Below are positions 1,464 to 22,780 of a DNA stretch of 64,000 bases, one piece after another. The stretch covers positions 11,321-75,320 of the forward strand of contig NZ_JBAZUD010000001.1 in NCBI RefSeq assembly GCF_041661565.1. Reading direction: 5' to 3'. Origin of the DNA: Mesorhizobium sp. GTDB lineage: Bacteria; Pseudomonadota; Alphaproteobacteria; Rhizobiales; Rhizobiaceae. The translations under genes and the position numbers were made by a program. Within the stretch, counting starts at the first letter, position 1, and every line of letters begins with the position of its first letter. Under the pieces are notes generated by a model that did no database searches, was not told the origin of the DNA, and saw only the letters and a program-made list of their open reading frames with translations.

Positions 1464-4400
1464 ATGAATATCCAGACGAATCCTGCCCAAATCGAGAAGA
1501 CGAGCGCGAGCTTCCCGGCGATAACGGAAGAACCCATCCGATCCAATTTCCTCCCCGAGGAACGCCTGCGGGTGCTTGGCGAGAGCCTGGCAAAAGGTGA
1601 CCTGACGGATCTGTTCGGCTTGACGCCTTTCGATTTCCAGGCGCGCATCCGCGACAGCGCCAAGAAGATCCTGGAAGTCTATCGTTCGACCAATGCCGCG
1701 CAGGCCAGAGGCGAGACCATCACGCCGGCGGCGCAATGGCTGCTCGACAACAACTATCTGGTCGAAGAAACCATCTTCCAGGTCAAGCGCGACCTGCCGC
1801 GCCGCTTCTATCGCCAATTGCCTGGCTTGAAACTGCCCGATGGCGGCAACGTGCCGCGCGCGCTGGCGCTGGCCTGGACCTATGTGGCGCATTCGGACAG
1901 TTCCGTGTCCGCGACCATGTTCAAGGCCATCGTGCAGGGCTTCCAGTCGGTTGAGCCGCTGAGGATCGGCGAACTCTGGGCTCTGCCGTCGCTGCTGCGC
2001 TTCGTCCTCATCGAAAATCTCCGCCGGCTGGCGGTCAGGGTCAACCGCACGCGCCAGATGCGCCAGATCGCCAATGACGTGGCCGACAAGGTGCTGGCGA
2101 CCGACGACAGCCCGGACCGGCAGGCGATCCTCTCGAATTTCAGCGCCCATGCGCACGACACCACTTTCGCCACCCAACTGCTCTACCGTTTGCGTGACGG
2201 GTCGCAGAATGCCGGCAAGGCCCTGGAGTGGCTGGAAGGCGAGCTTGAAAAGACCGGCTCGGACGCCGAGGAAATCATCATTGCCGAACACCACACGCTG
2301 TCCAGCGGCAATGTGACAACCGGCAACATCATCCGTGGCCTGCGTCTGATCAACGACGTCGACTGGACGGTGTGGTTCGAGGACGTCAGCCGCATCGATA
2401 CCGTGCTGCGCGGACGCACCGATTTCGCCGCACTCGATTTCTTTTCGCGCGATCAATACCGGACCGCGATCGAGGAACTGGCCCGCCGCTCGGACCTTTC
2501 GGAATACCGCGTCGCCGAGAAGGCCATCGAACTGGCCGGTCATAACGTCGATGAAGTGGTGACGGACCCCGGTGAGGGCGGAGAGCTCCCGGTTTCATCC
2601 GCGCATACCGATGTCGGCTTCTATCTTGTTGGCCCACGCCGGCTGGAGTTGGAAAAGGTGATCGGCTATCGACCGACGATCAGCCAGAGGGTCAAGCGCG
2701 CCTTCACCAAGACGGGATGGCTGGGCATTGTCGTGCCGGTTTTCGCGCTGACGGTGCTGCTTCTCGTCCTGTCCGGCAACGCGCTTGCCCATCTCGGCCT
2801 GTCGGTGCCGTCGATCGTCCTCATGCTGGCGCTGTTTGCGGTTCCGGCCAGCGAGGGCGCCCTTGCATTCTTCAACACAGTGGTCTCGTTGTTCCTCAAG
2901 CCGACCCGCCTGATCGGCTATGATTACAGGCACGGCGTGCCGCCGGAAGCGCGCACCCTGGTAGTGGTGCCGTCGCTGATCGGCTCGCGCGACGATGTCG
3001 AGGAGAGCATTCGCAACATCGAAGTGCATTACCTTGCCAATCTAGCGGACGAGATTCATTTCGCGCTGCTCTCGGACTGGCCCGACAGCAAGACCGAAAT
3101 CGATGTGGCGGATACCGAGATCCTCGGATTTGCCCGCGCCGAGATAGACCGTCTCAATGCCCGCTATCCCTCTCAGGGCGCGCCGCGTTTCTACATCCTG
3201 CACCGGCGCCGTCTCTTCAACGCCGCCCAGGGTGCCTGGATGGGGTGGGAGCGCAAGCGGGGCAAGCTGCACGAACTGGACCTTCTGCTGCGCGGCGACA
3301 GTGACACCACCTTCCTACCGCTCGGTGTGCCGCTGCCCGAGAACGTCGTCCATGTGATGACGCTCGATGCCGACACGCGCACCACCCGCGACGCGGTCGC
3401 GAGTCTCATCGGCAAACTCTGCCATCCGCTGAACCGTCCGCATTTCGATGCCACCAGGCGCGTTGTCACGGCTGGATACGCGATCCTGCAGCCACGCATC
3501 ACGGCATCGCTGACCAGCGGCGACGAAGCATCGTTCTTTCAGCGGGTCTTCTCGGCCAATCGAGGGCTGGACCCCTATGTCTTCGCCGTATCCGATCTCT
3601 ATCAGGACGTCTTCGGCGACGGCTCCTTCACCGGCAAGGGCCTCTACCATGTGGACGCGTTCGAGGCGGCGCTGAAGGGGCGGATCGAGGAAAACACCAT
3701 CCTCAGCCATGATCTGCTCGAAGGCGCCCTGGCGCGCTCCGCGCTGGTCACCGATGTGGAACTTGTCGAGGATTATCCGACCCGTTACTCGGTCGACGCG
3801 TCTCGTCATCATCGCTGGGCGCGAGGCGACTGGCAGTTGCTCGGCTTCATCCTCGATCCGCGCTCCGGCGTGCCGGCATTGTCGCGCTGGAAGATGCTCG
3901 ACAACCTGCGCCGCTCGCTGACACCGATCTTCTGGGTGCTGGCGGCGATCGCCGGCTGGACCCTGCTGCCCTTCACGCAGGCCGCGCAGTGGCAGGCCCT
4001 GCTGATCCTCAGCCTTTTCATGGCGCCGACATTCAACATCGTGAACGCCATCCTGCCCAAGAGCGGCGACCAGACGGCGCGGGGCCATTTCTCGGCACTG
4101 GCGCGCGATGTTGCCTTCGGCACCGCCATGGTGGCATTGAAGATCGTGCTGATGGCGCACAACGCCTGGATGATGGGCGACGCCATCGTGCGCACCCTCT
4201 ACCGGCTTTTCGTCAGCCGCCAGAACCTGCTGGAATGGCGCACAGCCTCGCAGGCGCACAAAAGCGGCGACAACGATCTCGGCTCCTACTACGGCATGAT
4301 GTATGGCGCGGTGATCATCGGCTTCGTCGGCCTCGCCATTCCGGTGCTGGCCGATTCGACCGGCGCCTTCGTCGCCTTCTTCTTCGCGCTGTTCTGGATC

Positions 4401-7400
4401 GCTTCGCCGGCGGTGGCCTCCTGGATCAGCCGTTCGGCCGAGACCGAGGACCGGCTGCGGATTTCGGCCGCCGACATCCATACTTTGCGCACCGTGGCGC
4501 GGCGCACATGGCACTATTTCGAAACCTTCGTCACTTCAGAGCACCACAACCTGCCGCCCGACAACTTCCAGGAAAGCCCGGCGCCGGTCGTGGCGCCACG
4601 CACGTCGCCGACCAATATCGGCGTCTATCTGCTGTCGGTCGTTTCCGCGCGCGATTTCGGCTGGATCAGCCTGTCCGACGCCATCACGCGCATCGACGCC
4701 ACAATGTCGACAATCGAAGGAATGCCGCGCGACCGCGGCCATCTTTTCAACTGGTACGACACGACGACGTTGAAGCCGCTCTACCCGCTCTATATTTCCG
4801 CCGTCGACAGCGGCAACCTCGCGGGGCATCTGGTGGCGGTGGCGGCCGCCTGCGCCGAATGGGCCGAAGCACCTTCCGTCCATCTCCAGGGCGATTTCGA
4901 GGGGATTCTCGACACTGTCGCCATCCTCGGCGAAAGCCTTGAAGAACTGCCCGATGATCGCCGCCAGTTGCGCCCCCTGCGCCAGCGTCTCGCGGACCGT
5001 CTCGACGGCATGCGCCGCGCCGTCGACACCATCAAGGCACAGCCGGAAATGGCATCGATCCGCACCATCAACCTGGCGGTGCTGGCAGGCGAGATCCGCA
5101 AGCTGGCCGCGGCCATCCACACCGAGGCTGCATCGGCCCAGAGCGACGTTATCGTCGACTGGGCGGCAAGACTCGAAGCCACCTGCGAAGCGCATGTGCA
5201 TGACGCGCACAGCGACGACAATGCCGTGGCCGCACTGCGCGCCAGGCTGCTCACCCTGCGCGAGCGCACGCGCCGCTTCGCCTTCGAGATGGATTTCTCG
5301 TTCCTTATGCGGCCTGAGCGCAAGCTGTTGTCGATCGGGTACCGCGTCGAGGAGCACCAGCTCGATGAAAGCTGTTATGACCTGCTGGCCTCCGAGGCGC
5401 GGCTGACCAGCCTGTTCGCCATCGCCAAGGGCGATCTCCCGACAGAGCATTGGTTCCGGCTTGGCCGGCCGATCGTCGAGATCGGTTTCCAGGGCGCGCT
5501 AATGTCCTGGTCCGGCTCGATGTTCGAGTACCTGATGCCGCCGCTGGTGATGAAGGAGCCGCAAGGCAGCATCCTCAACCAGACAAGCAAGCTGATCATC
5601 AAGCGCCAGATCCAGTACGGCCGCGAGAAGAACGTGCCGTGGGGCATCTCGGAAGCGGCCTACAATGCCCGTGACCGAGAGCTGACCTACCAGTACACCA
5701 ATTTCGGCGTGCCAGGCCTGGGCTTGAAGCGCGGCCTCGGCCAGAACACCGTGATCGCACCTTACGCGACGATCCTGGCGGCACAGTTCAATCCGCGTGA
5801 AGCGGTGCGCAACTTGGCGCGGCTCCGGCAAATAGGCGCGCTCGGCCGCCACGGCTACTACGACGCGGTCGACTTCACGCCGCAGCGCGTGCCCGAGGGC
5901 ACCGATCACGTCGTCGTGCAGAACTACATGGCCCACCATTCGGGCATGTCGATCGCGGCTGTCGCCGACGCCATATTCGAAGGCCGGCTGCGCGACCGCT
6001 TCCATAGCGATCCCGTCATCGAATCGGCCGAGCTGCTGCTGCAGGAGAGGGCACCGCGCGACATCCCGACCGCCACGGTCCGGACAGAGGCCGACGAACG
6101 ATCCAAGGACGAGAGCGAGGTCGAGAGCCCCGACAGCCGCATCGTGCTGGATCCGTTGCGGGCGCTGCGCTCGACGAGCATGATGTCGAACGGACGCTAC
6201 TCGGTGATGGTCACCGCGACCGGCTCCGGCTACAGCCGCTGGGGCGATCTTTCCGTCACCCGCTGGCAGCCGGATCCGACCGAGGACCGGATGGGATCCT
6301 ACATCTTCCTGCGCGATGCGGGCACCGGCGACTGGTGGTCGGCAACGGCCGAGCCGAAGCGCGCGGCGGAGGAAAAGGCGCAGACCCTGTTCTCCGACGA
6401 CAAGGCAAGCTTCCTGAAATCGGTCGGCTCCTTGCGCTCCGAGGTCGAGTGCATCGTCATTTCCGAAGGCAATGGCGAGGGCCGCCGCGTCACGCTCTAC
6501 AATGACGGGGCATCCGACCGCCACATCGAAGTGACTTCCTTCGCCGAACTGGTCCTGGGCTCCGAGGCATCGGACAATGCCCATCCGGCCTTCTCGAAAA
6601 TGTTCATAGAAACCGAGATCGCGCCGAACAACGGCGCGATCTTCGCCACGCGGCGCAAGCGCGAAACCAGCGAGCCCGATATCACCCTGGTGCATTTCGT
6701 CACCGACCCGTCCGGACCGGCGCGTGATGCCGAAGCCGAGACGGACAGGCGCGCCTTCATCGGCCGCGGCCGCACCATCGTCGACGCGGCCGCTTTCGAT
6801 CCAGGCGCCAAGCTTCGCGGTCATTCGGGCTTCACGCTCGATCCGATCGCCTCGTTGCGCCGCCAGGTGCGGGTGCCGGCCAACAAGAAGATATCGCTGA
6901 CCTTCTGGACCGTCGTCGGCGCCAGCCGCGCCGAGTTGGAGGAAGCCATCGCCCGGCTCGACCATCCCGAGAGTTTTGCCCGCCAGGCGATGCTTGCCTG
7001 GACGCGCAGCCAGGTCCAGACCCGTCACATGGGGCTCAGCCTGACCGACGCCGCCAACGTGCAGAAGCTTGCACGCTACCTGATCTATCCCGATCCGTTC
7101 CTGCGGCTTCCCGCCGAATCCATCGCGTCGGGGCTGGGCAAGCAGTCGAGCCTGTGGCCGACCAGCATCTCCGGCGATTTCCCGATCTTCCTGGTCAGGA
7201 TCGGCGACGTCGCCGATCTGGAGATCGTCGCCCAGGCGCTTCGTTTCCAGGAGTATATGCGCACCCGCGGCATGATGATCGACTTCGTCGTCGTCAACGA
7301 GCAGGCGTCCTCCTATGTCCAGGACCTGCAGAGGGCGGTCGAGACGCTGTGTGAGAACAGCCGCTTGCGCGGCAAGGAACTCGGGCCTCGCCAGCACATT

Positions 7401-14430: not shown

Positions 14431-15117
14431 ATGAAACGCTCCGCCATCAACGACATCATCCGCGAAGCTGACGCCTTCATCCGCTCGTTCGGCTACATCA
14501 TGCCGCCCTTCGCCTATTGGTCGCCCGAGGAGATGAAGGCGCGCCAGGCCGATTCCTCGGCGGTGTTCACCTCGCGTCTGGGCTGGGACATCACCGATTA
14601 CGGCCAGGAGAAGTTCAAGGAGCTCGGCCTGTTCCTGTTCACCGTGCGCAACGGCCGCTACGAAGACATGAAGAAGGGCATGGGCATGCTCTATGCGGAA
14701 AAGATCATGATCTCGCGCAAGGACCAACTGTCGCCGATGCATCGCCACAACATCAAGGCCGAGGACATCATCAACCGCGGCGGCGGCAAGCTGGTGCTGG
14801 AACTGTTCATGCACGATCGCGATGGCGGCATCGACCCGAAGGCCGAGGTCACCGTGCCTGTCGACGGAACCATCCACAGGCTGCCGGCCGGCGGGCTGCT
14901 GAAGCTCGACCCCGGCCAGAGCGTCACGCTGCTGCCCGGCGTCTGGCATGCCTTCTGGGCCGAGGGCAAGGACGTGCTGATCGGCGAGGTCTCGACCGTC
15001 AATGACGACCTCACCGACAATGTCTTCCGCGAACCGATCGGCCGCTTTTCCAACATCGACGAGGATGTCGCCCCGGTGCACCTGCTGGTGTCCGACTACG
15101 AGAAGTGGCTGGGGTAG
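14431..15117 (+). CDS. D-lyxose/D-mannose ketol-isomerase family (cupin)
   Basis: MKRSAIN, LGWDITDYG, YAEKIMI, PMHRH..KAEDIINRGGG and GEVSTVNDD. Confidence 0.88.
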   Translation: MKRSAINDIIREADAFIRSFGYIMPPFAYWSPEEMKARQADSSAVFTSRLGWDITDYGQEKFKELGLFLFTVRNGRYEDMKKGMGMLYAEKIMISRKDQLSPMHRHNIKAEDIINRGGGKLVLELFMHDRDGGIDPKAEVTVPVDGTIHRLPAGGLLKLDPGQSVTLLPGVWHAFWAEGKDVLIGEVSTVNDDLTDNVFREPIGRFSNIDEDVAPVHLLVSDYEKWLG

Positions 15118-15151
15118 GGAACGCACGGGCGAGCCTGCCCGCCGGCAAGCG

Positions 15152-16846
15152 TCAATGACAGCAATCGGACACTGACGACACGCTCGTTCGGCACAGGCAG
15201 GACGAGGTGATCGGCACATCCGCCTTGGCCAGCGCCCCGGCAAGCCTGGCCTGCAGACCCGGCAGCTCGTCGCTCTCGCCGCGCCGCTGCAAACATTCGA
15301 CCAGTCCGTGCAGGGACCAGACATTGTCGGGGTGCTGGGCGCAGCGCTGCACCGTGCCGCTGAGGCCCAGATCGTCGCGATAGACCTGCTCGGCCTCTCG
15401 CGCGTGGCCCTGGTCGAGAAGCAGCGCCGCCAGCGCATGGCGGGGAGGGTGCATCCACGCCCATGGCTCGGTGTAGGAGAGGTTGTCGTCCAGTTCGACA
15501 GCCAGCCGCAGATGGCCATAGGCCTCGTCATGCCGGCCCTGGTGGTACGCAAGCTCGCCGTCGAGCAGGGCGGCGCCAACAGCCAGCGAGGCGCGGGTCG
15601 GGTTGCTGAGGAACCGCCGCTCCGGCGCGATGCTCTCCACATGCCGGTGGAACCGCTCACGTTCACGCTCGGCCTCGGCGAATTGCTTCAGCGTCGCATG
15701 CGCGACGCCCTTGGCGTAGTGCTGCATGGCCGCCGTCAGCACATAGAGGCCGGGCTCTTGGACATCGGCTTCGTCGATGATCTCCCGCCAGCGGCCAAAG
15801 CGCACCAGCACATGCGATCTCATCGCATGGTAGCCTTCCACCGTCTGGGTGAGCTTGGGCCGCTCCGGCAGGCTGACCACCTCGCGCGTCACCAGCCCGC
15901 GCACCTTGTCTGCAGCCCGCAGCGCCGGCCGGTACTGCCCCGACAACATGCAGGTGAACATCATCAGATGCAGGTCGTGGCAGCAACCGAGCAGATAATA
16001 GGTCGGCTCATCCGCATAGGCGAGGTAGAGGTCGTTGGCGCGGTCCGCCTTCTCGCTGGCAAGCCTGGCCTTCTCATACGCGCCGCACAGCACGTAGATA
16101 TGCCCGGGCATATGGTTCATGTGTCCGGCATCGGGGCACATCTGCCCAAGCAGGTCCGCCGAGCTCATGCCGCGTTCCGGCATGGTGGACATTTCCAAGA
16201 GGTGGATGTGCAGGTGAACGATCGCCGGATGCTGGGCGTTGCCGGCCTCTTCGGCGAGCCGGATCGACCGTTCGCAAACCTCCAGCGCCTCGACGACATC
16301 GGAATTCGGCGCCGGCGCACCGGTCTTGAGGTTCCACAGTCGCCGCACGGTACGCATCATCAGCGCCTCGACAAGCAGCGCCATCACGTCATGGTCGTCG
16401 GGGAATTCCTGGTAGACCAGCCGCATCGCGGCGGCATAGGCATCGTCCCACCGCTCGAATTCCTGGGGGCTCACCCGGTGCGGTTTCTGGAAGCGCGCGG
16501 CCAGCGCTTCGATCAGCCGCCTCTCGACCTCACTGGCGGAAGCCGCACTGGCGCGCGCCAGCCGGACATGCTCGAAGCATCGCTTGGTCGCGCGGTCCGC
16601 CTCGGCCTCGCCATGCTCCTTCCAGGTCAGATTGTAGAAAGGCCCGGCGGCATAGGCGATTCCCCAATGCACCATGGCGCAGTCGGGATCGGTTTCCAGC
16701 GCTTTCTCGAAGCACTTGATGCCCTCCTCATGGTTGAAGCCGTAGCACCAGTTCAAGCCGATATCGAACCAGCGCTGGGTCTCGGTGGAGCAGGTGGAGA
16801 TGGGGCGGCGGTAGGCGCCGAGGTTGAAGCGGTCCATGTCTTCCAT
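15152..16846 (-). CDS. TPR-containing protein of unknown function
   Basis: WCYGFNHEE, HLHIHLLEMS, HMNHMPGHIY, YTEPWAWMHPPRHALAALL, HPDNVWSLHGL and C-terminal SSCLCR; start placed at MEDMDRF. Confidence 0.8.
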   Translation of the reverse strand: MEDMDRFNLGAYRRPISTCSTETQRWFDIGLNWCYGFNHEEGIKCFEKALETDPDCAMVHWGIAYAAGPFYNLTWKEHGEAEADRATKRCFEHVRLARASAASASEVERRLIEALAARFQKPHRVSPQEFERWDDAYAAAMRLVYQEFPDDHDVMALLVEALMMRTVRRLWNLKTGAPAPNSDVVEALEVCERSIRLAEEAGNAQHPAIVHLHIHLLEMSTMPERGMSSADLLGQMCPDAGHMNHMPGHIYVLCGAYEKARLASEKADRANDLYLAYADEPTYYLLGCCHDLHLMMFTCMLSGQYRPALRAADKVRGLVTREVVSLPERPKLTQTVEGYHAMRSHVLVRFGRWREIIDEADVQEPGLYVLTAAMQHYAKGVAHATLKQFAEAERERERFHRHVESIAPERRFLSNPTRASLAVGAALLDGELAYHQGRHDEAYGHLRLAVELDDNLSYTEPWAWMHPPRHALAALLLDQGHAREAEQVYRDDLGLSGTVQRCAQHPDNVWSLHGLVECLQRRGESDELPGLQARLAGALAKADVPITSSCLCRTSVSSVSDCCH

Positions 16847-16889
16847 TCGATTCGCGTGGTTGCCCGTCGCCAGCTGAAGCGGCGATATC

Positions 16890-17492
16890 TTACCAGCCAG
16901 CCAGCTCGGGCAAGTCGTCAAGCCAGCTCTTCTCGGTCATCAAGGCATCGCCGGCCTCCGGTGTAGCCTCGCCGGCGCTTTGGATGAGCCAGTCCATCCA
17001 CTTGCGATGGGCGGCGGGCTCCAATTGAGGCGGCAGAACCTTGGCCTTGGCCAGCATCCGCTTGCGGAAACTGGTTTGCCTGCGGAGTTTGGTCGTCGTG
17101 AACTTGATGGCCTTGCCTTGGCATTCAACAATCCACCTGTCGCCTCCAAGACTGACGAGGCGGTCGATGGCGAAACCGGGATCGACCGGCCTGTCCCGCC
17201 AGGGAAGCTCGATGGCATTCTTCCTCAGGTCGAGTGCCCATCGCCGGTAGGTCGTCCCGACAAGCTGGGGCGGCAGCACACCGGCCTGTTCGAGTATCTT
17301 CCTGCGGAAGGTAGGCTGCTTCTTGAGCTGACCAGTCGTGAATTCGACCCGATGCCCCCGAAACTCCACGTGCCACCGGATTCTCCCATTGCCGACATAC
17401 TTCACCAGTCGGTCGATGACGAACTCGTCCTCGGCAAGCGCTACGCAGCCTTGGTTGATGCTTTGGAGGATGAACTCGGTGTCAGTGACCAT
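16890..17492 (-). CDS. Hypothetical protein with two tandem copies of a ~70-aa domain (possibly phage-derived)
   Basis: Internal duplication F.IDRLV...W.VE..G....FTT..L..Q..FR...L..A.VLPPQL....R.W; start uncertain (ATG 17492, frame open to 17627). Confidence 0.7.
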   Translation of the reverse strand: MVTDTEFILQSINQGCVALAEDEFVIDRLVKYVGNGRIRWHVEFRGHRVEFTTGQLKKQPTFRRKILEQAGVLPPQLVGTTYRRWALDLRKNAIELPWRDRPVDPGFAIDRLVSLGGDRWIVECQGKAIKFTTTKLRRQTSFRKRMLAKAKVLPPQLEPAAHRKWMDWLIQSAGEATPEAGDALMTEKSWLDDLPELAGW

Positions 17493-18174
17493 TATGGAAG
17501 CCAGCGCAGGAAAACTGTCGCCGAGCTTAGCCAGTGGAACGCACCCGCGGCCACCATTCTTTTTCGCTCTGGCAATCTCACCTGCTTCAATCAGCCAAAA
17601 GGTGATGCGGGGCGCGATGATGTGCAAGGCGATAGCTTACGCACCGAAGATACCAAGGGTCGGAGTGACCGATGCTATAGAAACCCCAAATGGACCACTA
17701 TCTAGATGACGAACTGGAACGCCCTGGTCGATCGTATCGCCGGGCCGCACGATCCTGAGGAAGAAGGCTGGAACCTTGCGCGATGAAACGATCTTTGCGA
17801 GGCGGGCGTATGGCCGGCGGTAATTCGTGAGGCCGCACAATGATTCAGGACGAAGACCTGAAGCGCGGCGGGCTTCTCTTTGTGTCGCGCGGTCGGCTAC
17901 GTGCCTTTCTCTTTTGACGCATCCTTCGTGAGGAGTAGAACAAGGATGATGCTGGCCAGGTGCGGATCAATGGCGGTTCGGAAAACGAGTTCGATCATGG
18001 ATGGTCCTATCTGCCCGAGGGGGGCGATTGTTGGTGCTCGAGAACCACGCGTTTTCATGATTCCCTGAAGGAATCGTTTTCTGCGAATGGTTGGCGTCAC
18101 CACTCGGTATGTGGATGCTGTGATCTTTGCCTTCGATAGCTGCCGTGCGCCTGTCTATAGGGTCTATCCTCGGC

Positions 18175-18206
18175 AAGCCCGCCGATCACCCGGCGGGCTT
18201 TTCTTT
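18175..18206 (+). terminator. Rho-independent terminator
   Basis: aagcccgccg-atcacc-cggcgggctt followed by ttcttt. Confidence 0.8.
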
Positions 18207-18251
18207 GTGGCCAGCCGCGCCAATGATAAGTGTGGGAGCGAAGGGGAATAG

Positions 18252-18806
18252 ATGACAATCGTTCGACGCGGCTTCGAAGCCCTCCGAAGCAGGCTTACAG
18301 GAATCGGTTTCCTTAGCCTAAGTGCAAGCTGGAATCCGCCAGTTGCACAACGGACAGTGATTTTGCGACTGTTCAATCTCTTGGAGAACCGGCGCGCGCT
18401 CTACGTGCCGTCCAACTTCGAAATTCCCGGTGACGTGGATCGATCAATCATCGAAATCCGCCATGAGCTTACGCAAGTCTTGAACGACCTGCCGGAGAAC
18501 TCGCGGGCCGCGCGGCGCGTCCGACATCTGCGCACCGCCTGCCGGCGCTTTTTGGAAGATGCGCCGCCTGATTACCGAAACATCGCCTATCGCCTTCGCG
18601 ACGCCTTCGACCATGGGTCACCAGCCCGCTGGCACGATCACGGCGAGCGCGCGCTGACGCCCGGATATTTCGTGGCGTTAGGAGAGTTGCGGGCCACATT
18701 TGGATTGCAGCTTTCGGCGCTCGCGGCCGAATTCGAAATAGACGTGGAGGAAGACCTTGCCTCGATCTTCCCCGTTGCGGTCGAGCGCAATAGCCATGAA
18801 CCTTAA
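18252..18806 (+). CDS. DUF6650-like protein
   Basis: SRLTGI...SW.PP...R....LENRRALY.P...E....SI.EIR..LT and LRTACRRFL...LGELRATFG match my recollection of DUF6650; RBS AAGGGG upstream. Confidence 0.65.
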   Translation: MTIVRRGFEALRSRLTGIGFLSLSASWNPPVAQRTVILRLFNLLENRRALYVPSNFEIPGDVDRSIIEIRHELTQVLNDLPENSRAARRVRHLRTACRRFLEDAPPDYRNIAYRLRDAFDHGSPARWHDHGERALTPGYFVALGELRATFGLQLSALAAEFEIDVEEDLASIFPVAVERNSHEP

Positions 18807-19455
18807 AATGGTGCCGGAATACCCCAACAGAATCGCCCGCATTGGTTCGGTCCTTGCATTGCTCGGTTCACTGATCTGGGTTCAATGGCCAATCAATTAT
18901 GCGAGCTTCAACATTGCGGCGGTTATCCTGCTTATTGCGACATTCGTGACATGGGTAAGCACCGAAATCTCCGACTATCGAGAGGGCGAGATATTTAATG
19001 ATAATATTAAGTCGGATGATGTGGATAAGTTAAATTCAATCATAAAGATCATCGATAGGAATCAGTTCTACATTTTGAAGCAAAAATCTATAGAAACTTA
19101 TATGGATGCTGACGATTATAAAGGACTTCAAAGTCTAATATATTATAAGCAGAATGATATATTCCATTTTCATAATGTTAAGATTCAAGCTATATATGAG
19201 AAATTCTCAAACGAAGCGCTCGAATTTTACATGAGTTTTTTCGGCCTATATACATACGATGGGCACGGCAGATCGACGTGGCGTCCATCAGGGGATCGAT
19301 ACGTCAGCGACGAAGTCTACAAAGAGATACAACATGAAATTGCGGTGTTGAATCGCAAGGCGTCGAGTCTCGCGGAGCGATGGGAAGAACTGATCAACCT
19401 GTCGCGGCAGGAATTGAAGGGTGCTTCAAAAGCTATTGAGCGTTACGAACTGTGA
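18796..19455 (+). CDS. AT-rich hypothetical protein with 2 N-terminal TM helices and a helical C-terminal domain
   Basis: Hydrophobic IGSVLALLGSLIWVQW and IAAVILLIATFVTWV; ATG overlaps the upstream gene by 11 bp; 19021-19080 is 18/60 G+C. Confidence 0.75.
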   Translation: MNLKMVPEYPNRIARIGSVLALLGSLIWVQWPINYASFNIAAVILLIATFVTWVSTEISDYREGEIFNDNIKSDDVDKLNSIIKIIDRNQFYILKQKSIETYMDADDYKGLQSLIYYKQNDIFHFHNVKIQAIYEKFSNEALEFYMSFFGLYTYDGHGRSTWRPSGDRYVSDEVYKEIQHEIAVLNRKASSLAERWEELINLSRQELKGASKAIERYEL

Positions 19456-19476
19456 ATCGCCCATGGGAGATAGAAT

Positions 19477-19794
19477 ATGGGTGCAATCATTGCCCTTGTG
19501 CTTACGGGCTGCGCTGCTGTCGGTGTCTATAAGTTTTTCACTAAACGGGATTTCAGGCAAAGTCTCGTTGACGAGTTCGCTAGATCGCCCATTGAGACAG
19601 CCTTCGTCTTTTCGTGGTGCGGGTGCGGGCTATTGTTCTTTTGGGGGGTCTTTGTCCCTGCACTCGGGACCATCAAAATTCCGATATCGGGCAAGACGTA
19701 TGAACTTTGGGCAGTGGCCGGCATCGCTTTCCTTGTCGGTTTCGCGATCATAGGAGCCTATGAGTGGCTGAAGACGCCTCGTCATCCGAGATGA
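19477..19794 (+). CDS. Small membrane protein (about 3 TM segments)
   Basis: 105 aa with three hydrophobic stretches; RBS GGGAGA before the ATG. Confidence 0.65.
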   Translation: MGAIIALVLTGCAAVGVYKFFTKRDFRQSLVDEFARSPIETAFVFSWCGCGLLFFWGVFVPALGTIKIPISGKTYELWAVAGIAFLVGFAIIGAYEWLKTPRHPR

Positions 19795-19878
19795 CCCATG
19801 AGGATCATCTGCCGGAGTGTAACACTTAGCACTTTCTAATGTTGCCTAAGTGATTGAAAAGAAATGAAAAAAGAGGCT

Positions 19879-19952
19879 TGGCTGGGGAACCTGGATTCGA
19901 ACCAGGACTAACGGAGTCAGAGTCCGTGGGTCTACCGTTAACCTATTCCCCA
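19879..19952 (-). tRNA. tRNA-Gln (anticodon CTG)
   Basis: Minus strand reads TGGGGAATAGGTTAACGGTAGACCCACGGACTCTGACTCCGTTAGTCCTGGTTCGAATCCAGGTTCCCCAGCCA; it has the GTTCGAATC T-loop and an encoded CCA. Confidence 0.97.
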
Positions 19953-20006
19953 GCAGGCGCGATCATGGATCGCGCGGGCCGAGCGGCTGAGCCGCTTGAG
20001 CGCTGC

Positions 20007-20034
20007 CTTGTAGCCGCCAGCGGAAAATAGTCAA
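20007..20034 (-). promoter_or_regulatory. Putative sigma70 promoter of tRNA-Gln
   Basis: TTGACT-N16-TACAAG on the minus strand about 55 bp upstream of the tRNA. Confidence 0.5.
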
Positions 20035-20107
20035 GCCTGCTCTGCGCGCCTTGTCAGTTGTTTTGACAGCCGGGCGCACGGGCGTGGGGATTAATCCAAT
20101 CCGCGCC

Positions 20108-21040
20108 TCAGGTCTCCGTCCGGCTGAATTGCGAGCGTTCGAAGAACAGCACGACGCCCAAGCCCAGAATCAGCGGGATGATCAGGTAGAACAGCCGGAA
20201 CACGAGCAGCGCAGACAGAACGCCGACGGGATCCATGTCTGAAAGTCCGGCCAGGAAAACCACCTCGAACACGCCGAGCCCGCCCGGCGCGTGCGAGATC
20301 TGCGCGATCGAGAAGGAGACGAGGAAGACGCCAAGCACGACGAAATAGCCTGGATTGTTGGCTTCGGGCAGGGCGAAGAAGATGATCGCGGCCGCGGCGA
20401 GCAGTTCGATCGGTCCGATCAGCAATTGCCTGGCGACGATCGGCAGCGCCGGATAGTGCAGTTGAAAGCCGCCGATCTTCAGGGGATTGAGATGCAACCA
20501 GCTGCCGAAGATGTAGGCGCCGACCAGCATCAGCAGGGCAATTCCGGCCGCCATTGCCAGGCCGTGATGCGGTGCGCCGGAGAAGCGGTCGATGATTTCG
20601 GGCTCCAACACCAGCACCAGGCCGCCGACCAGCACGCTGGACAGCACGAAGGTGATCCAGCAGATCGCCACCAGGATGCCGACATCCTGGCCGGTCAGGC
20701 CCCTCGTGCCGTAGGCGCGGTAGCGGATGACGGCGCCGGAGAACACCGAGCCGCCAATGTTGTGCGACAGCGCATAGGTCGTGAATGAGCAAAGGGTCAC
20801 GAACAGCCACGAGACCCTCTTGCCGATATGCAGCAGCGCGATGTGGTCGTAGCCGGCGAGCGAGGCATAGGCGATCACGGAGCACAAGGCCGCGAGCAGC
20901 CAGCCGCGCGGGGGAATGGCCGATATGCCGTCCCAGACATCGTCGAGCGAGATGCCGCGCAGTTCGTGCCACAAAAGCAGCAGCGAAAAGATCACCGCGG
21001 CGATGCCGACGACCGGCCAGAAATAACGTCTCCAGTTCAT
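20108..21040 (-). CDS. Lysylphosphatidylglycerol synthase TM-domain (UPF0104/MprF flippase-like) protein
   Basis: SGAVIRYRAY, SHAPGGLGVFE and LLVFRLFYLIIP; multiple TM helices. Confidence 0.85.
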   Translation of the reverse strand: MNWRRYFWPVVGIAAVIFSLLLLWHELRGISLDDVWDGISAIPPRGWLLAALCSVIAYASLAGYDHIALLHIGKRVSWLFVTLCSFTTYALSHNIGGSVFSGAVIRYRAYGTRGLTGQDVGILVAICWITFVLSSVLVGGLVLVLEPEIIDRFSGAPHHGLAMAAGIALLMLVGAYIFGSWLHLNPLKIGGFQLHYPALPIVARQLLIGPIELLAAAAIIFFALPEANNPGYFVVLGVFLVSFSIAQISHAPGGLGVFEVVFLAGLSDMDPVGVLSALLVFRLFYLIIPLILGLGVVLFFERSQFSRTET

Positions 21041-21418
21041 TGCCTGACTGCCATGCGCCTGGATCGCTTCCTTCTTTGTCGGTGGCCGGAGGCCGGCTGT
21101 TCCGGATTCTGCCCTGCGTTTCAGGAATGCCTCATTGAAGCCGGCTATTCAACCGCGAACGTTTTTCGCACAGGCGGCCCTCAAGAATTGGCCGTGCAGG
21201 ATGCTGTAGAACGCGAGCGACCAGCGTCGCGACTGCCCATCCCGGCTTGCGAAAATTCGCCGGAGGCAGCGGGAACGGCGGCTGTCGCTCCGAGCCGGCA
21301 AAATTCGCCGCGCGGCTCTTGGTGATCAGGCGCGGCACTGTTAGTCTGGCGGCAACTTAAATCACTCAAGCGCCCGCAGCGTCCATCATCGGTTCGCGCG
21401 GCGCCGGAAGGAACGACA

Positions 21419-22780
21419 GTGGAAGACCGCGACACCGGCGCCGACGCGCCGGAGGTGGGCGCGTCCAGCGCTTCCCCGGGGCCTGCCGGCCCAGGGGCAG
21501 CCAGTTGGCAGCAACGCCGGCCGACGGGGCCCCGCTTCGCCGACGGGCATGCTGGCGACGCGGCCCAAAACCAGAAGGGCAAGCCCAAGAAGCGGCGCAA
21601 GCGCAGGCGCGGGCGCAAGGTTTTCGCGCGCGACGAAGCGCGCCCCGCAACGAACCGATCGCCGCCGCCGGGCGATGCCCCTGTCCCCGCGGCGAAGACA
21701 TCAGCGCCACCCGTGGCAGCTGCCCCGCCTGACGCTCCGGCACGGCCCGAACAGGGCGTCCGGCGGCCGCCGGCGTACGAGCTTCCCGTCTTCGCCGCCC
21801 TTGACCTCGGCACCAACAATTGCCGGCTGCTGGTCGCCGTGCCGACGCGGCATGGCCAGTTCCGCGTCATCGACGCCTTTTCGCGCATCGTGCGCCTGGG
21901 CGAGGGGCTGACCGCCAATGGACGGCTCGGCCAGCCGGCGATGGACCGCGCGGTCGAGGCGCTGAAAGTCTGCGGCGACAAACTGCGCAACCGCAAGATC
22001 AGGAAGGCGAGGCTCATCGCCACCGAAGCCTGCCGCACGGCCGACAATGGCGTCGAGTTCCTCGATCGCGTCGAGCGCGAGGCCGGGCTCAAGCTCGAGA
22101 TCATCGACCGACAGACCGAGGCGCGGCTGGCTGTTTCCGGCTGCGGCTCGCTGGTCGAACGCGACACGCAGGGCGTCGTCCTGTTCGATATCGGCGGCGG
22201 ATCGTCCGAGATCGCGCTGATCGATCTCAGCGGTCGCCGTTCGCCAAGGCTCGCCAACCATATCGTGTCGTGGACCTCGCTGCCGGTCGGCGTCGTCTCG
22301 CTGGCCGAGCGCTTCGGCGGCCGCACTGTGACGCGCGAGATCTTCGCCGCCATGGTCGACGATGTCGCCGCCCGGCTGGCGACTTTCGATGGCCGTGATC
22401 GGTTGAGCCATCTGAAGGCCAGCCCGAATTTCCACCTGCTCGGCACGTCCGGCACCGTGACGACGCTGGCCGGTGTGCACCTCGACCTCGAGCGCTACGA
22501 CCGCCGCCGCGTCGACGGGCTGTGGATGGATCGCGACAGCGTCGACCGCATGGTGGAAAAGCTGGTTGGCTGGGACTTCCAGCAGCGCTGCGCCAACCCT
22601 TGCATCGGTGCGGATCGCGCCGACCTGGTCCTGGCAGGCTGTGCTATATTGGAAGCCATTCGCGCGGTGTGGCCATCGGAGCGGCTGCGGGTCGCCGATC
22701 GCGGCCTGCGCGAAGGCATATTGAGCGAGCTGATGGCCGATGACGGCGTCTGGCGCAATGATGGGCGTGGCAGGGCATGA
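21419..22780 (+). CDS. ppx: Ppx/GppA phosphatase family protein with a disordered N-terminal extension
   Basis: [33 protein letters not shown] and GLREG. Confidence 0.9.

Follow-up and report, generated by a model that had tools for sequence, protein, structure and literature searches.

Three small genes beside a tRNA gene in a stretch of Mesorhizobium sp. DNA (assembly GCF_041661565.1, contig NZ_JBAZUD010000001.1, positions 11,321 to 75,320; the whole 64,000-nucleotide stretch is referred to as the window, and positions are counted from its first letter) raise the question of whether they form an anti-phage module and, if so, which of them act together. Gene A (18252-18806, forward strand) encodes a soluble DUF6650 (ThsG-like) protein of 184 aa. 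Gene B (18796-19455, forward strand) is AT-rich, and its 219-aa product combines two N-terminal membrane helices with a helical-bundle domain of about 150 aa. Gene C (19477-19794, forward strand) encodes a 105-aa protein with three membrane helices. An original prediction, made from the sequence letters, had proposed a conflict module in which the product of A acts as sensor or partner and the membrane proteins act as effectors. The results presented here suggest that the islet carrying the three genes is a plausible, unproven variant of a known defence family, and they show that the gene downstream of A is exchanged among related genomes.

Family membership of gene A

Gene A matched the Pfam family DUF6650 (PF20355) with 37 bits, above the curated cut-off of 27 (E 4.2e-9, profile positions 2-94 of 150), and was the sole copy in the assembly when the whole genome was scanned (36.4 bits). 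It also matched phrog_29952 (2.6e-16) and aligned over its whole length with relatives from alphaproteobacteria that match DUF6650 positions 4-145, sharing with them the conserved C-terminal block G-Y-F-V-A-L-G-E-L-R-A. Orthologues of A carry the NCBI label 'DUF6650 family protein'. Judged from these alignments, A is a true DUF6650 protein, and its earlier description as 'DUF6650-like' was borne out. No hydrophobic helix was found in A, its monomer model had a predicted local distance difference test score (pLDDT) of 68, and searches of the PDB returned neither a fold nor a sequence match. A had no match in the phage collection and nine plasmid matches.

The defence link that had been proposed for A also agreed with published work, as the family has been shown experimentally to act in phage defence, both in DS-27 and in type VI Thoeris. 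In the latter, the DUF6650 protein is called ThsG and serves as the effector, answering 2'cADPR made by a TIR partner (bioRxiv 10.64898/2025.12.03.692087). A Pfam search found a TIR match in none of A, B, C, and the upstream gene, and profile scans for TIR_2, ThsB_TIR, and CAP12-PCTIR_TIR found none in the whole assembly, which is a Mesorhizobium metagenome-assembled genome from groundwater and is 86.6% complete. SEFIR was likewise not detected in this incomplete assembly, in a weak search whose SEFIR control matched in no genome. Because no TIR was detected at the islet or in the assembly scans, the window locus is, as far as these profiles tell, not a type VI Thoeris system.

Other published architectures were also missing from A. 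Its 184 aa hold DUF6650 only, with no SMEK fusion of the DS-27 kind, and TM (transmembrane) helices N-terminal to DUF6650, as in the membrane-anchored forms of ThsG, were not present, the helices here lying in the separate products of B and C. Longer fused forms of A were represented by a single match of 360 aa, with an unrelated low-complexity tail and no second domain. The possibility that A and B are one frameshifted gene was rejected, because A terminates at the same point in all of its orthologues.

A type VI Thoeris-like operon was observed on pSymA of Sinorhizobium medicae (locus L034, 3989-6052), where CAP12/PCTIR-TIR and SEFIR genes flank DUF6650 in the order CAP12-type TIR, DUF6650, SEFIR. 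The DUF6650 gene there is split into open reading frames (ORFs) of 63 and 119 aa, and its surroundings include a VapBC pair, an integrase, and insertion sequence (IS) elements.

Exchange of the gene downstream of A

Among 201 other Mesorhizobium species genomes, A was found in approximately eight and B in none. DNA similarity to the islet in these approximately eight genomes was limited to the A region, beginning at 18175-18192 in the genomes G125, G016, G092, and G018 and stopping at 18772-18791, which is 15-34 nt short of the A stop codon. The 5' edge of the DNA block conserved with A is marked by a terminator-like hairpin with a T-run (18175-18200, forward strand), located just upstream of A and formed by a 10-pair stem with eight GC pairs. 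The A orthologues of Mesorhizobium, present in at least 20 strains in NCBI records, share 75-91% protein identity.

What follows A differed from genome to genome. In G125 and G126, the next gene encodes a 245-aa HNH_repeat and T5orf172/MUG113 (GIY-YIG) protein and overlaps A by 4 bp. A degraded copy of the T5orf172-type partner follows A in G016, and the A loci of G125 and G016 are at the same tRNA-Gln(CTG) as that of the window. In G092 and G098, A is followed after a 72-bp gap by a gene for a 329-aa protein with two N-terminal TM helices (a 2TM protein), and in G018 and G002, after a 120-bp gap, by one for a weakly DUF6035-like protein of 476-487 aa. Beyond this genus, other uncharacterised genes were found after the A homologue in three alphaproteobacteria, a tyrosine recombinase gene overlaps it by 4 bp on Paraburkholderia pOLGA3, and a 218-aa gene overlaps it by 8 bp on Nocardioides pNOCA01. 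With about 10 distinct partner types, the downstream gene was co-oriented with A in all contexts and overlapped A in four of the types (those of the window, G125/G126, pOLGA3, and pNOCA01), and no similarity was found among the partner proteins. The C-terminal tail of A also varied with the partner, reading VAVERNSHEP in the window, VAIERHD before the 329-aa 2TM protein, VALDPRGGE before the T5orf172 protein, and IGLDSP before the DUF6035-like protein. Partners are swapped at the slot downstream of A.

Membrane proteins were also found on the other side of DUF6650. A separate TM protein is encoded 11-31 bp upstream of DUF6650 in the viral contigs L055 and L060 and the genomes G126 and G418, and L059 contains a TM-DUF6650 fusion protein.

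The neighbourhoods of A orthologues included further genes. In G092 and G098, the 329-aa 2TM gene is followed by a Hypoth_Ymh (HEPN-type) gene, and a divergent UvrD helicase is also part of the cluster. In G092 (locus L038, 4703-10310), they make up a compact cluster of defence type, in which co-oriented genes encode, in this order, a 924-aa divergent UvrD-family helicase with a Top1 zinc ribbon, DUF6650, the 329-aa 2TM protein, and Hypoth_Ymh. In genome G276 (locus L042, 2005-2784), a 259-aa gene located 28 bp upstream of DUF6650 contains the sequence F-L-D-I-L-G-F-K, reminiscent of the motif by which class III nucleotide cyclases bind metal. It had no Pfam match, and a possible cyclase-DUF6650 pairing is only a lead.

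Two 19-nt terminator tails that are 95% identical (CGGCGGGCTT.TCTTTGTG) were observed at 17866-17884 and 18191-18209, 325 bp apart, in the left portion of the islet, where ORFs are otherwise scarce. The second copy is part of the hairpin that travels with the DUF6650 gene, and the first may have been left behind by a cassette that was once there. A scan of 17576-18251 for ORFs and RNA families found no small ORFs and no RNA families, and a Trp-leader candidate in this interval was rejected with 21.9 bits against a cut-off of 41.

The family of gene B

The two membrane helices and the helical domain that had been described for B were recovered. Residues 36-54 form a strongly hydrophobic helix, and residues from about 13 to 31 form a moderately hydrophobic one (Kyte-Doolittle of about 1.5). 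The AlphaFold model of B, with a pLDDT of 82 overall and above 90 at residues 70-210, placed helices at 9-28 and 40-85, followed by a confident helical bundle with two tiny strands. The motif F.F.N..IQ ... W..LI...RQEL was likewise found in B.

The family of B is small and rare. Its homologues, the closest of which are WP_023764464.1 and WP_224696117.1, formed 36 clusters at 44-84% identity, with all named members in Rhizobiales, and there were 58 representatives at E <= 0.001 among 1.8 billion proteins. Its 20 invariant positions included W28, Q30, D75, K78, N80, D121, F123, F125, T161, W162, W196, and E197. No match to B was found in Pfam, NCBIfam, PADLOC, or PHROGs, and neither B nor C had a match in the phage or plasmid collections. 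A sequence search of the PDB returned nothing, and ESM Atlas returned unnamed clusters only. Structure comparisons were similarly negative: Foldseek against the PDB and BFVD gave nothing at E <= 0.001, Csx28 (8gi1) was reached only at E 0.55, and the best VIA-align Z of 9.8, to designed helical bundles, is within the noise for helical proteins. B as a cryptic TIR or a diverged DUF6650 was rejected, with no Pfam match and an hhalign probability of 0.4% for B against the DUF6650 family. The earlier suggestion of a resemblance to tails fused to TIR/SEFIR, SMEK, or HNH effectors, made for the C-terminal domain of B, fits the DUF6650 of A and not that domain, for which no relative or known fold was detectable.

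Fourteen further B loci, at 38-62% identity, were surveyed in four species genomes and 10 metagenomes. Neither a DUF6650 nor a C homologue was near B in any of these 14 loci, which lie outside the close Mesorhizobium group. B was AT-rich there as well (41-50% GC, against 54-61% in the flanks). It was located less than 200 bp from a tRNA gene in five of the 12 informative loci and less than 1.4 kb from one in nine of the 12. The tRNA genes within 200 bp were those for Gln CTG (L052), Gln TTG (L053), Ser CGA (L050, L054), and Lys (L011), and six different tRNA species in total adjoined B loci. In L052, B was found alone at the same tRNA-Gln(CTG) as in the window. Based on the solitary loci, the AT-richness, and the varied tRNA neighbours, B is an independently mobile gene that is able to stand alone. 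In alphaproteobacteria, MucR-type proteins commonly silence foreign genes that are AT-rich, and such silencing could explain the tolerance of a potentially toxic lone B.

Three of the 14 copies were broken, by an internal stop in L053, a frameshift in L054, and an insertion in L011. In the latter (Rhizobium chutanense, tRNA-Lys, 2201-5548), B is split by an insertion of about 2.5 kb with a 721-aa ORF that has no Pfam match. Several B loci had housekeeping neighbours only, such as acnA and ftsY. In two tRNA-Ser(CGA) islets (L050, 452-2022; L054, 1973-3552), a pair of HipA_2 kinase and DUF3037 genes lies beside the B homologue, and in L049 and L054 a LEM-3-type GIY-YIG gene is located 40 bp upstream of B. 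The domains that DefensePredictor newly implicated in defence include DUF3037 and a HipA-family kinase (PMC13092281).

Relatives of both A and B were found beside defence-type genes in several loci, in keeping with the proposed defence setting. These neighbours comprised HipA_2 with DUF3037, GIY-YIG, Hypoth_Ymh, UvrD, and an Eco57I-type restriction-modification (RM) gene.

Gene C and the recurrence of the block

The product of C has three hydrophobic helices and nine homologues at 63-80% identity. Its only other match was to phrog_1299 (holin) at E 0.087, in which no stretch passed alone. The 36 homologues of B with 20 invariant columns, together with the nine homologues of C, indicate through their conservation that A, B, and C are all real genes.

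Consecutive GenBank protein numbers (ESY70034/ESY70033 and WJI39554/WJI39555) place a B-like and a C-like gene next to each other in two further Mesorhizobium genomes, and a third contig (P0054) contains the same B-C junction. Neither ESY70035 nor WJI39553 was recovered among the clusters of A orthologues. A homologue of B at 76% identity (P0008) has an N-terminal extension that is an alternate-frame reading of the 3' end of A, and a homologue of A at 90% identity (P0050) has the window-type tail. P0008 shows that the A-B junction is conserved even where the identity of B has fallen to 76%. The consecutive protein numbers, P0054, P0008, and P0050 together indicate that A-B-C recurs in a few Mesorhizobium lineages, and no recurrence was seen elsewhere. 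A conserved three-gene module, as originally envisaged, was not supported: B was alone in all 14 distant loci, A orthologues had other downstream genes, and C accompanied B only in Mesorhizobium.

Layout and composition of the islet

The arrangement of three co-oriented, tightly linked ORFs next to a tRNA 3' end was confirmed in its coordinates and distances. A and B share an 11-bp overlap, B and C are 21 bp apart, and the 3' end of the tRNA-Gln(CTG) gene (19879-19952, reverse strand; found by both ARAGORN and Rfam, 63.8 bits) points at the genes, 84 bp from the C stop codon. A has the ribosome-binding site AAGGGG, located 6 nt 5' of its start, and C has GGGAGA, while B has no Shine-Dalgarno sequence of its own. 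The upstream start of B (ATG 18796) overlaps A, and an alternative ATG at 18808 lies 1 nt past the TAA stop of A; most B homologues start at the position corresponding to ATG 18808 and open with the residues MVPE. The coupling of A and B is operon-like.

The guanine-plus-cytosine (GC) content was 58.7% in A, 42.0% in B, 52.8% in C, and 51.8% in the islet, against 63.2% in the whole window. Positions 19021-19080, within B, had exactly 30%, so that the middle gene is indeed far more AT-rich than its host. An assembly chimera at the GC step between A and B was considered and rejected. A Logan contig from the probable source run or sample spans 17500-19907 with zero differences, near-identical 151-bp pieces of both A and B were found in an unrelated soil metagenome, and the junction recurs in relatives.

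The conserved flanks of the block are only about 53 bp apart in the relatives G015 and G011, as opposed to 2.3 kb here, and this defines an accessory islet at 17576-19878, between a conserved 245-aa gene and tRNA-Gln. With the site empty in these two relatives and with B and A absent or rare in the comparison set, the islet is a non-core insertion, as the original prediction had supposed from its tRNA linkage. Insertion next to a tRNA gene, relative to an empty site, is one mark of a tRNA-integrated genomic island. Of the other marks, neither an integrase ORF nor a repeat of the tRNA end was found within 15000-21500. The block is best described as a small cargo islet without an integrase, situated at a tRNA-Gln(CTG) hotspot.

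The flanking 245-aa protein (16890-17627, reverse strand), which is outside the islet, is built from a domain of about 80 aa that occurs twice in tandem. It is kept at 74-83% identity beside tRNA-Gln in several Mesorhizobium genomes, and its only family match was a sub-threshold one to DJC28_CD.

Interpretation of the locus

The reading that we tentatively favour, at somewhat less than an even chance, is that of a DUF6650 switch with a swapped-in membrane effector. A would be a ligand-binding, oligomerising switch, as modelled for ThsG, which was proposed to be a hexameric tube with basic pockets between protomers (bioRxiv 10.64898/2025.12.03.692087). It would be activated during phage infection by a signal for which no TIR is encoded at this locus, and activated A would license the membrane protein B, possibly together with C. 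B would then breach or depolarise the inner membrane, and the infection would be aborted. A and B would thereby form a two-polypeptide counterpart of the published ThsG in which TM helices and DUF6650 are combined. We infer a defence role of the locus, an interaction between A and B, and an attack on the membrane. Co-function is favoured because a TIR-less and domain-poor DUF6650 under selection needs an output, and A is a TIR-less DUF6650 of about 180 aa that has been kept in many Mesorhizobium strains. It is favoured also because the downstream gene is always co-oriented, often overlapping, and effector-like, because another A orthologue has an analogous 2TM partner (the 329-aa protein), and because the A-B junction was kept through substantial divergence of B.

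Several results weigh against this reading. B was solitary in every locus beyond the close Mesorhizobium group, so it needs no DUF6650, and A needs no membrane partner, as DUF6650 and TIR are enough for defence in type VI Thoeris (bioRxiv 10.64898/2025.12.03.692087). With no TIR-type domain in the incomplete assembly, there is no known source of a signal. The GC contents of A (59%) and B (42%) point to different compositional histories, and one partner of A, the tyrosine recombinase, is not an effector. A TM neighbour was present in about eight of the 17 DUF6650 contexts, which is near chance for two neighbouring genes, and the association of TM proteins with DUF6650 is suggestive only. PADLOC-DB v2 assigned no families to A, B, C, or the upstream gene, in a library of 2023 that predates ThsG.

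Several of these results would also fit a mosaic islet, in which A, B, and C are functionally independent cargo piled up at the tRNA-Gln insertion hotspot, a reading that we consider only slightly less likely than the first. A may then be an orphan ThsG-like gene, answering a signal made elsewhere or idle, and B would be a self-contained mobile membrane protein, for example one of abortive infection or exclusion. The tight spacing would result from recombination into an existing transcription unit and not from co-function. The solitary, AT-rich copies of B beside six tRNA species indicate that it moves on its own, and the single tRNA-Gln(CTG) site is occupied by B alone in L052 and by A with another partner in G125 and G016. 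The compositional difference between A and B, the sufficiency of TIR and DUF6650 in Thoeris, and the missing signal source count on the same side. Against independent cargo stand a downstream gene that is co-oriented with A in every context and overlapping in several, the need of an output in a DUF6650 so well conserved, and an A-B junction that persists down to 76% identity of B.

A role outside defence, whether in accessory membrane or stress functions, as a toxin-antitoxin-like addiction pair, or as the remnants of a decaying element, appears improbable. It would suit the lack of any recognisable family or fold in B and C, the disruption of three of the 14 other B loci, the remnant-like islet without an integrase, and the B loci with housekeeping neighbours only. 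Set against these are the two independent experimental links of DUF6650 to phage defence, the recurrent defence-type neighbours, and the intact frames and conserved polar motifs, which indicate purifying selection.

A broader form of the favoured switch reading was also considered and is rather unlikely. DUF6650 would be a general TIR-independent switch that heads a recombination-prone slot and licenses interchangeable downstream killers, namely 2TM proteins, GIY-YIG/T5orf172 nucleases, and DUF6035-like proteins. B would represent a new membrane-effector fold, able to act alone as well and to hop from one tRNA flank to another.

Two questions are left open by the type VI Thoeris preprint, namely the role of TIR-less DUF6650, as in DS-27, and the killing mode of soluble ThsG, which it states as unknown (bioRxiv 10.64898/2025.12.03.692087). 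The Mesorhizobium loci provide a natural experiment on both points, as one DUF6650 orthologue is combined with at least four downstream genes, two of which encode membrane proteins, and a TIR is never among its partners. Should the pairs be functional, DUF6650 would serve as a portable switch without being the killer itself, Thoeris VI and DS-27 would be reread in this light, and one more membrane-effector family would be added. Should they not be, the locus would be an ordinary case of cargo genes that have accumulated at a tRNA hotspot.

Comparison with known systems

The closest published relative is type VI Thoeris. At about 180 aa, A is a small and helical member of the ThsG family PF20355, and the published family includes membrane-anchored forms. 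In contrast to that system, no TIR is adjacent here and none was detected in the assembly, A itself lacks TM helices, and two separate membrane-protein genes come after it.

DS-27 is a validated single-gene E. coli system, identified by DefensePredictor, in which a SMEK nuclease domain is fused to DUF6650 (PMC13092281), and a published list of the nuclease domains found in association with short Argonautes includes SMEK (PMC10810196). It resembles the present locus in that DUF6650 functions in the absence of a TIR and is linked to a distinct killing module. The effector nuclease of DS-27 is, however, fused N-terminally in one polypeptide, whereas the candidate effector here is a 2TM protein encoded by a separate gene downstream, and its sequence shows no similarity to SMEK.

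TM helices are present at the N-terminus of some ThsG proteins, for which a breach of the membrane was proposed (bioRxiv 10.64898/2025.12.03.692087, Fig. 4G,H). The combination of DUF6650 with membrane helices and the proposed membrane breach are shared with the window locus. Those proteins have the helices fused to the N-terminal side of DUF6650 and are accompanied by a TIR partner, whereas the membrane protein here is the product of a distinct downstream gene and has its own soluble domain of 150 aa.

The layout of B beside A also recalls other membrane effectors. CBASS effectors of the Cap15 type and PycTM of Pycsar have short N-terminal TM helices and a soluble domain, with a small soluble partner adjacent. 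B shares with them the TM helices joined to a soluble domain and the small soluble partner next to it, and the likeness is an analogy only: no sequence or fold similarity and no cyclase were found here, and the soluble domain of B is an all-helical bundle. Across these comparisons, DUF6650 as a defence family is already published, and what is new here is the series of TIR-less orthologues with swapped partners, the separately encoded membrane proteins, and the uncharacterised tRNA-flanking family of B.

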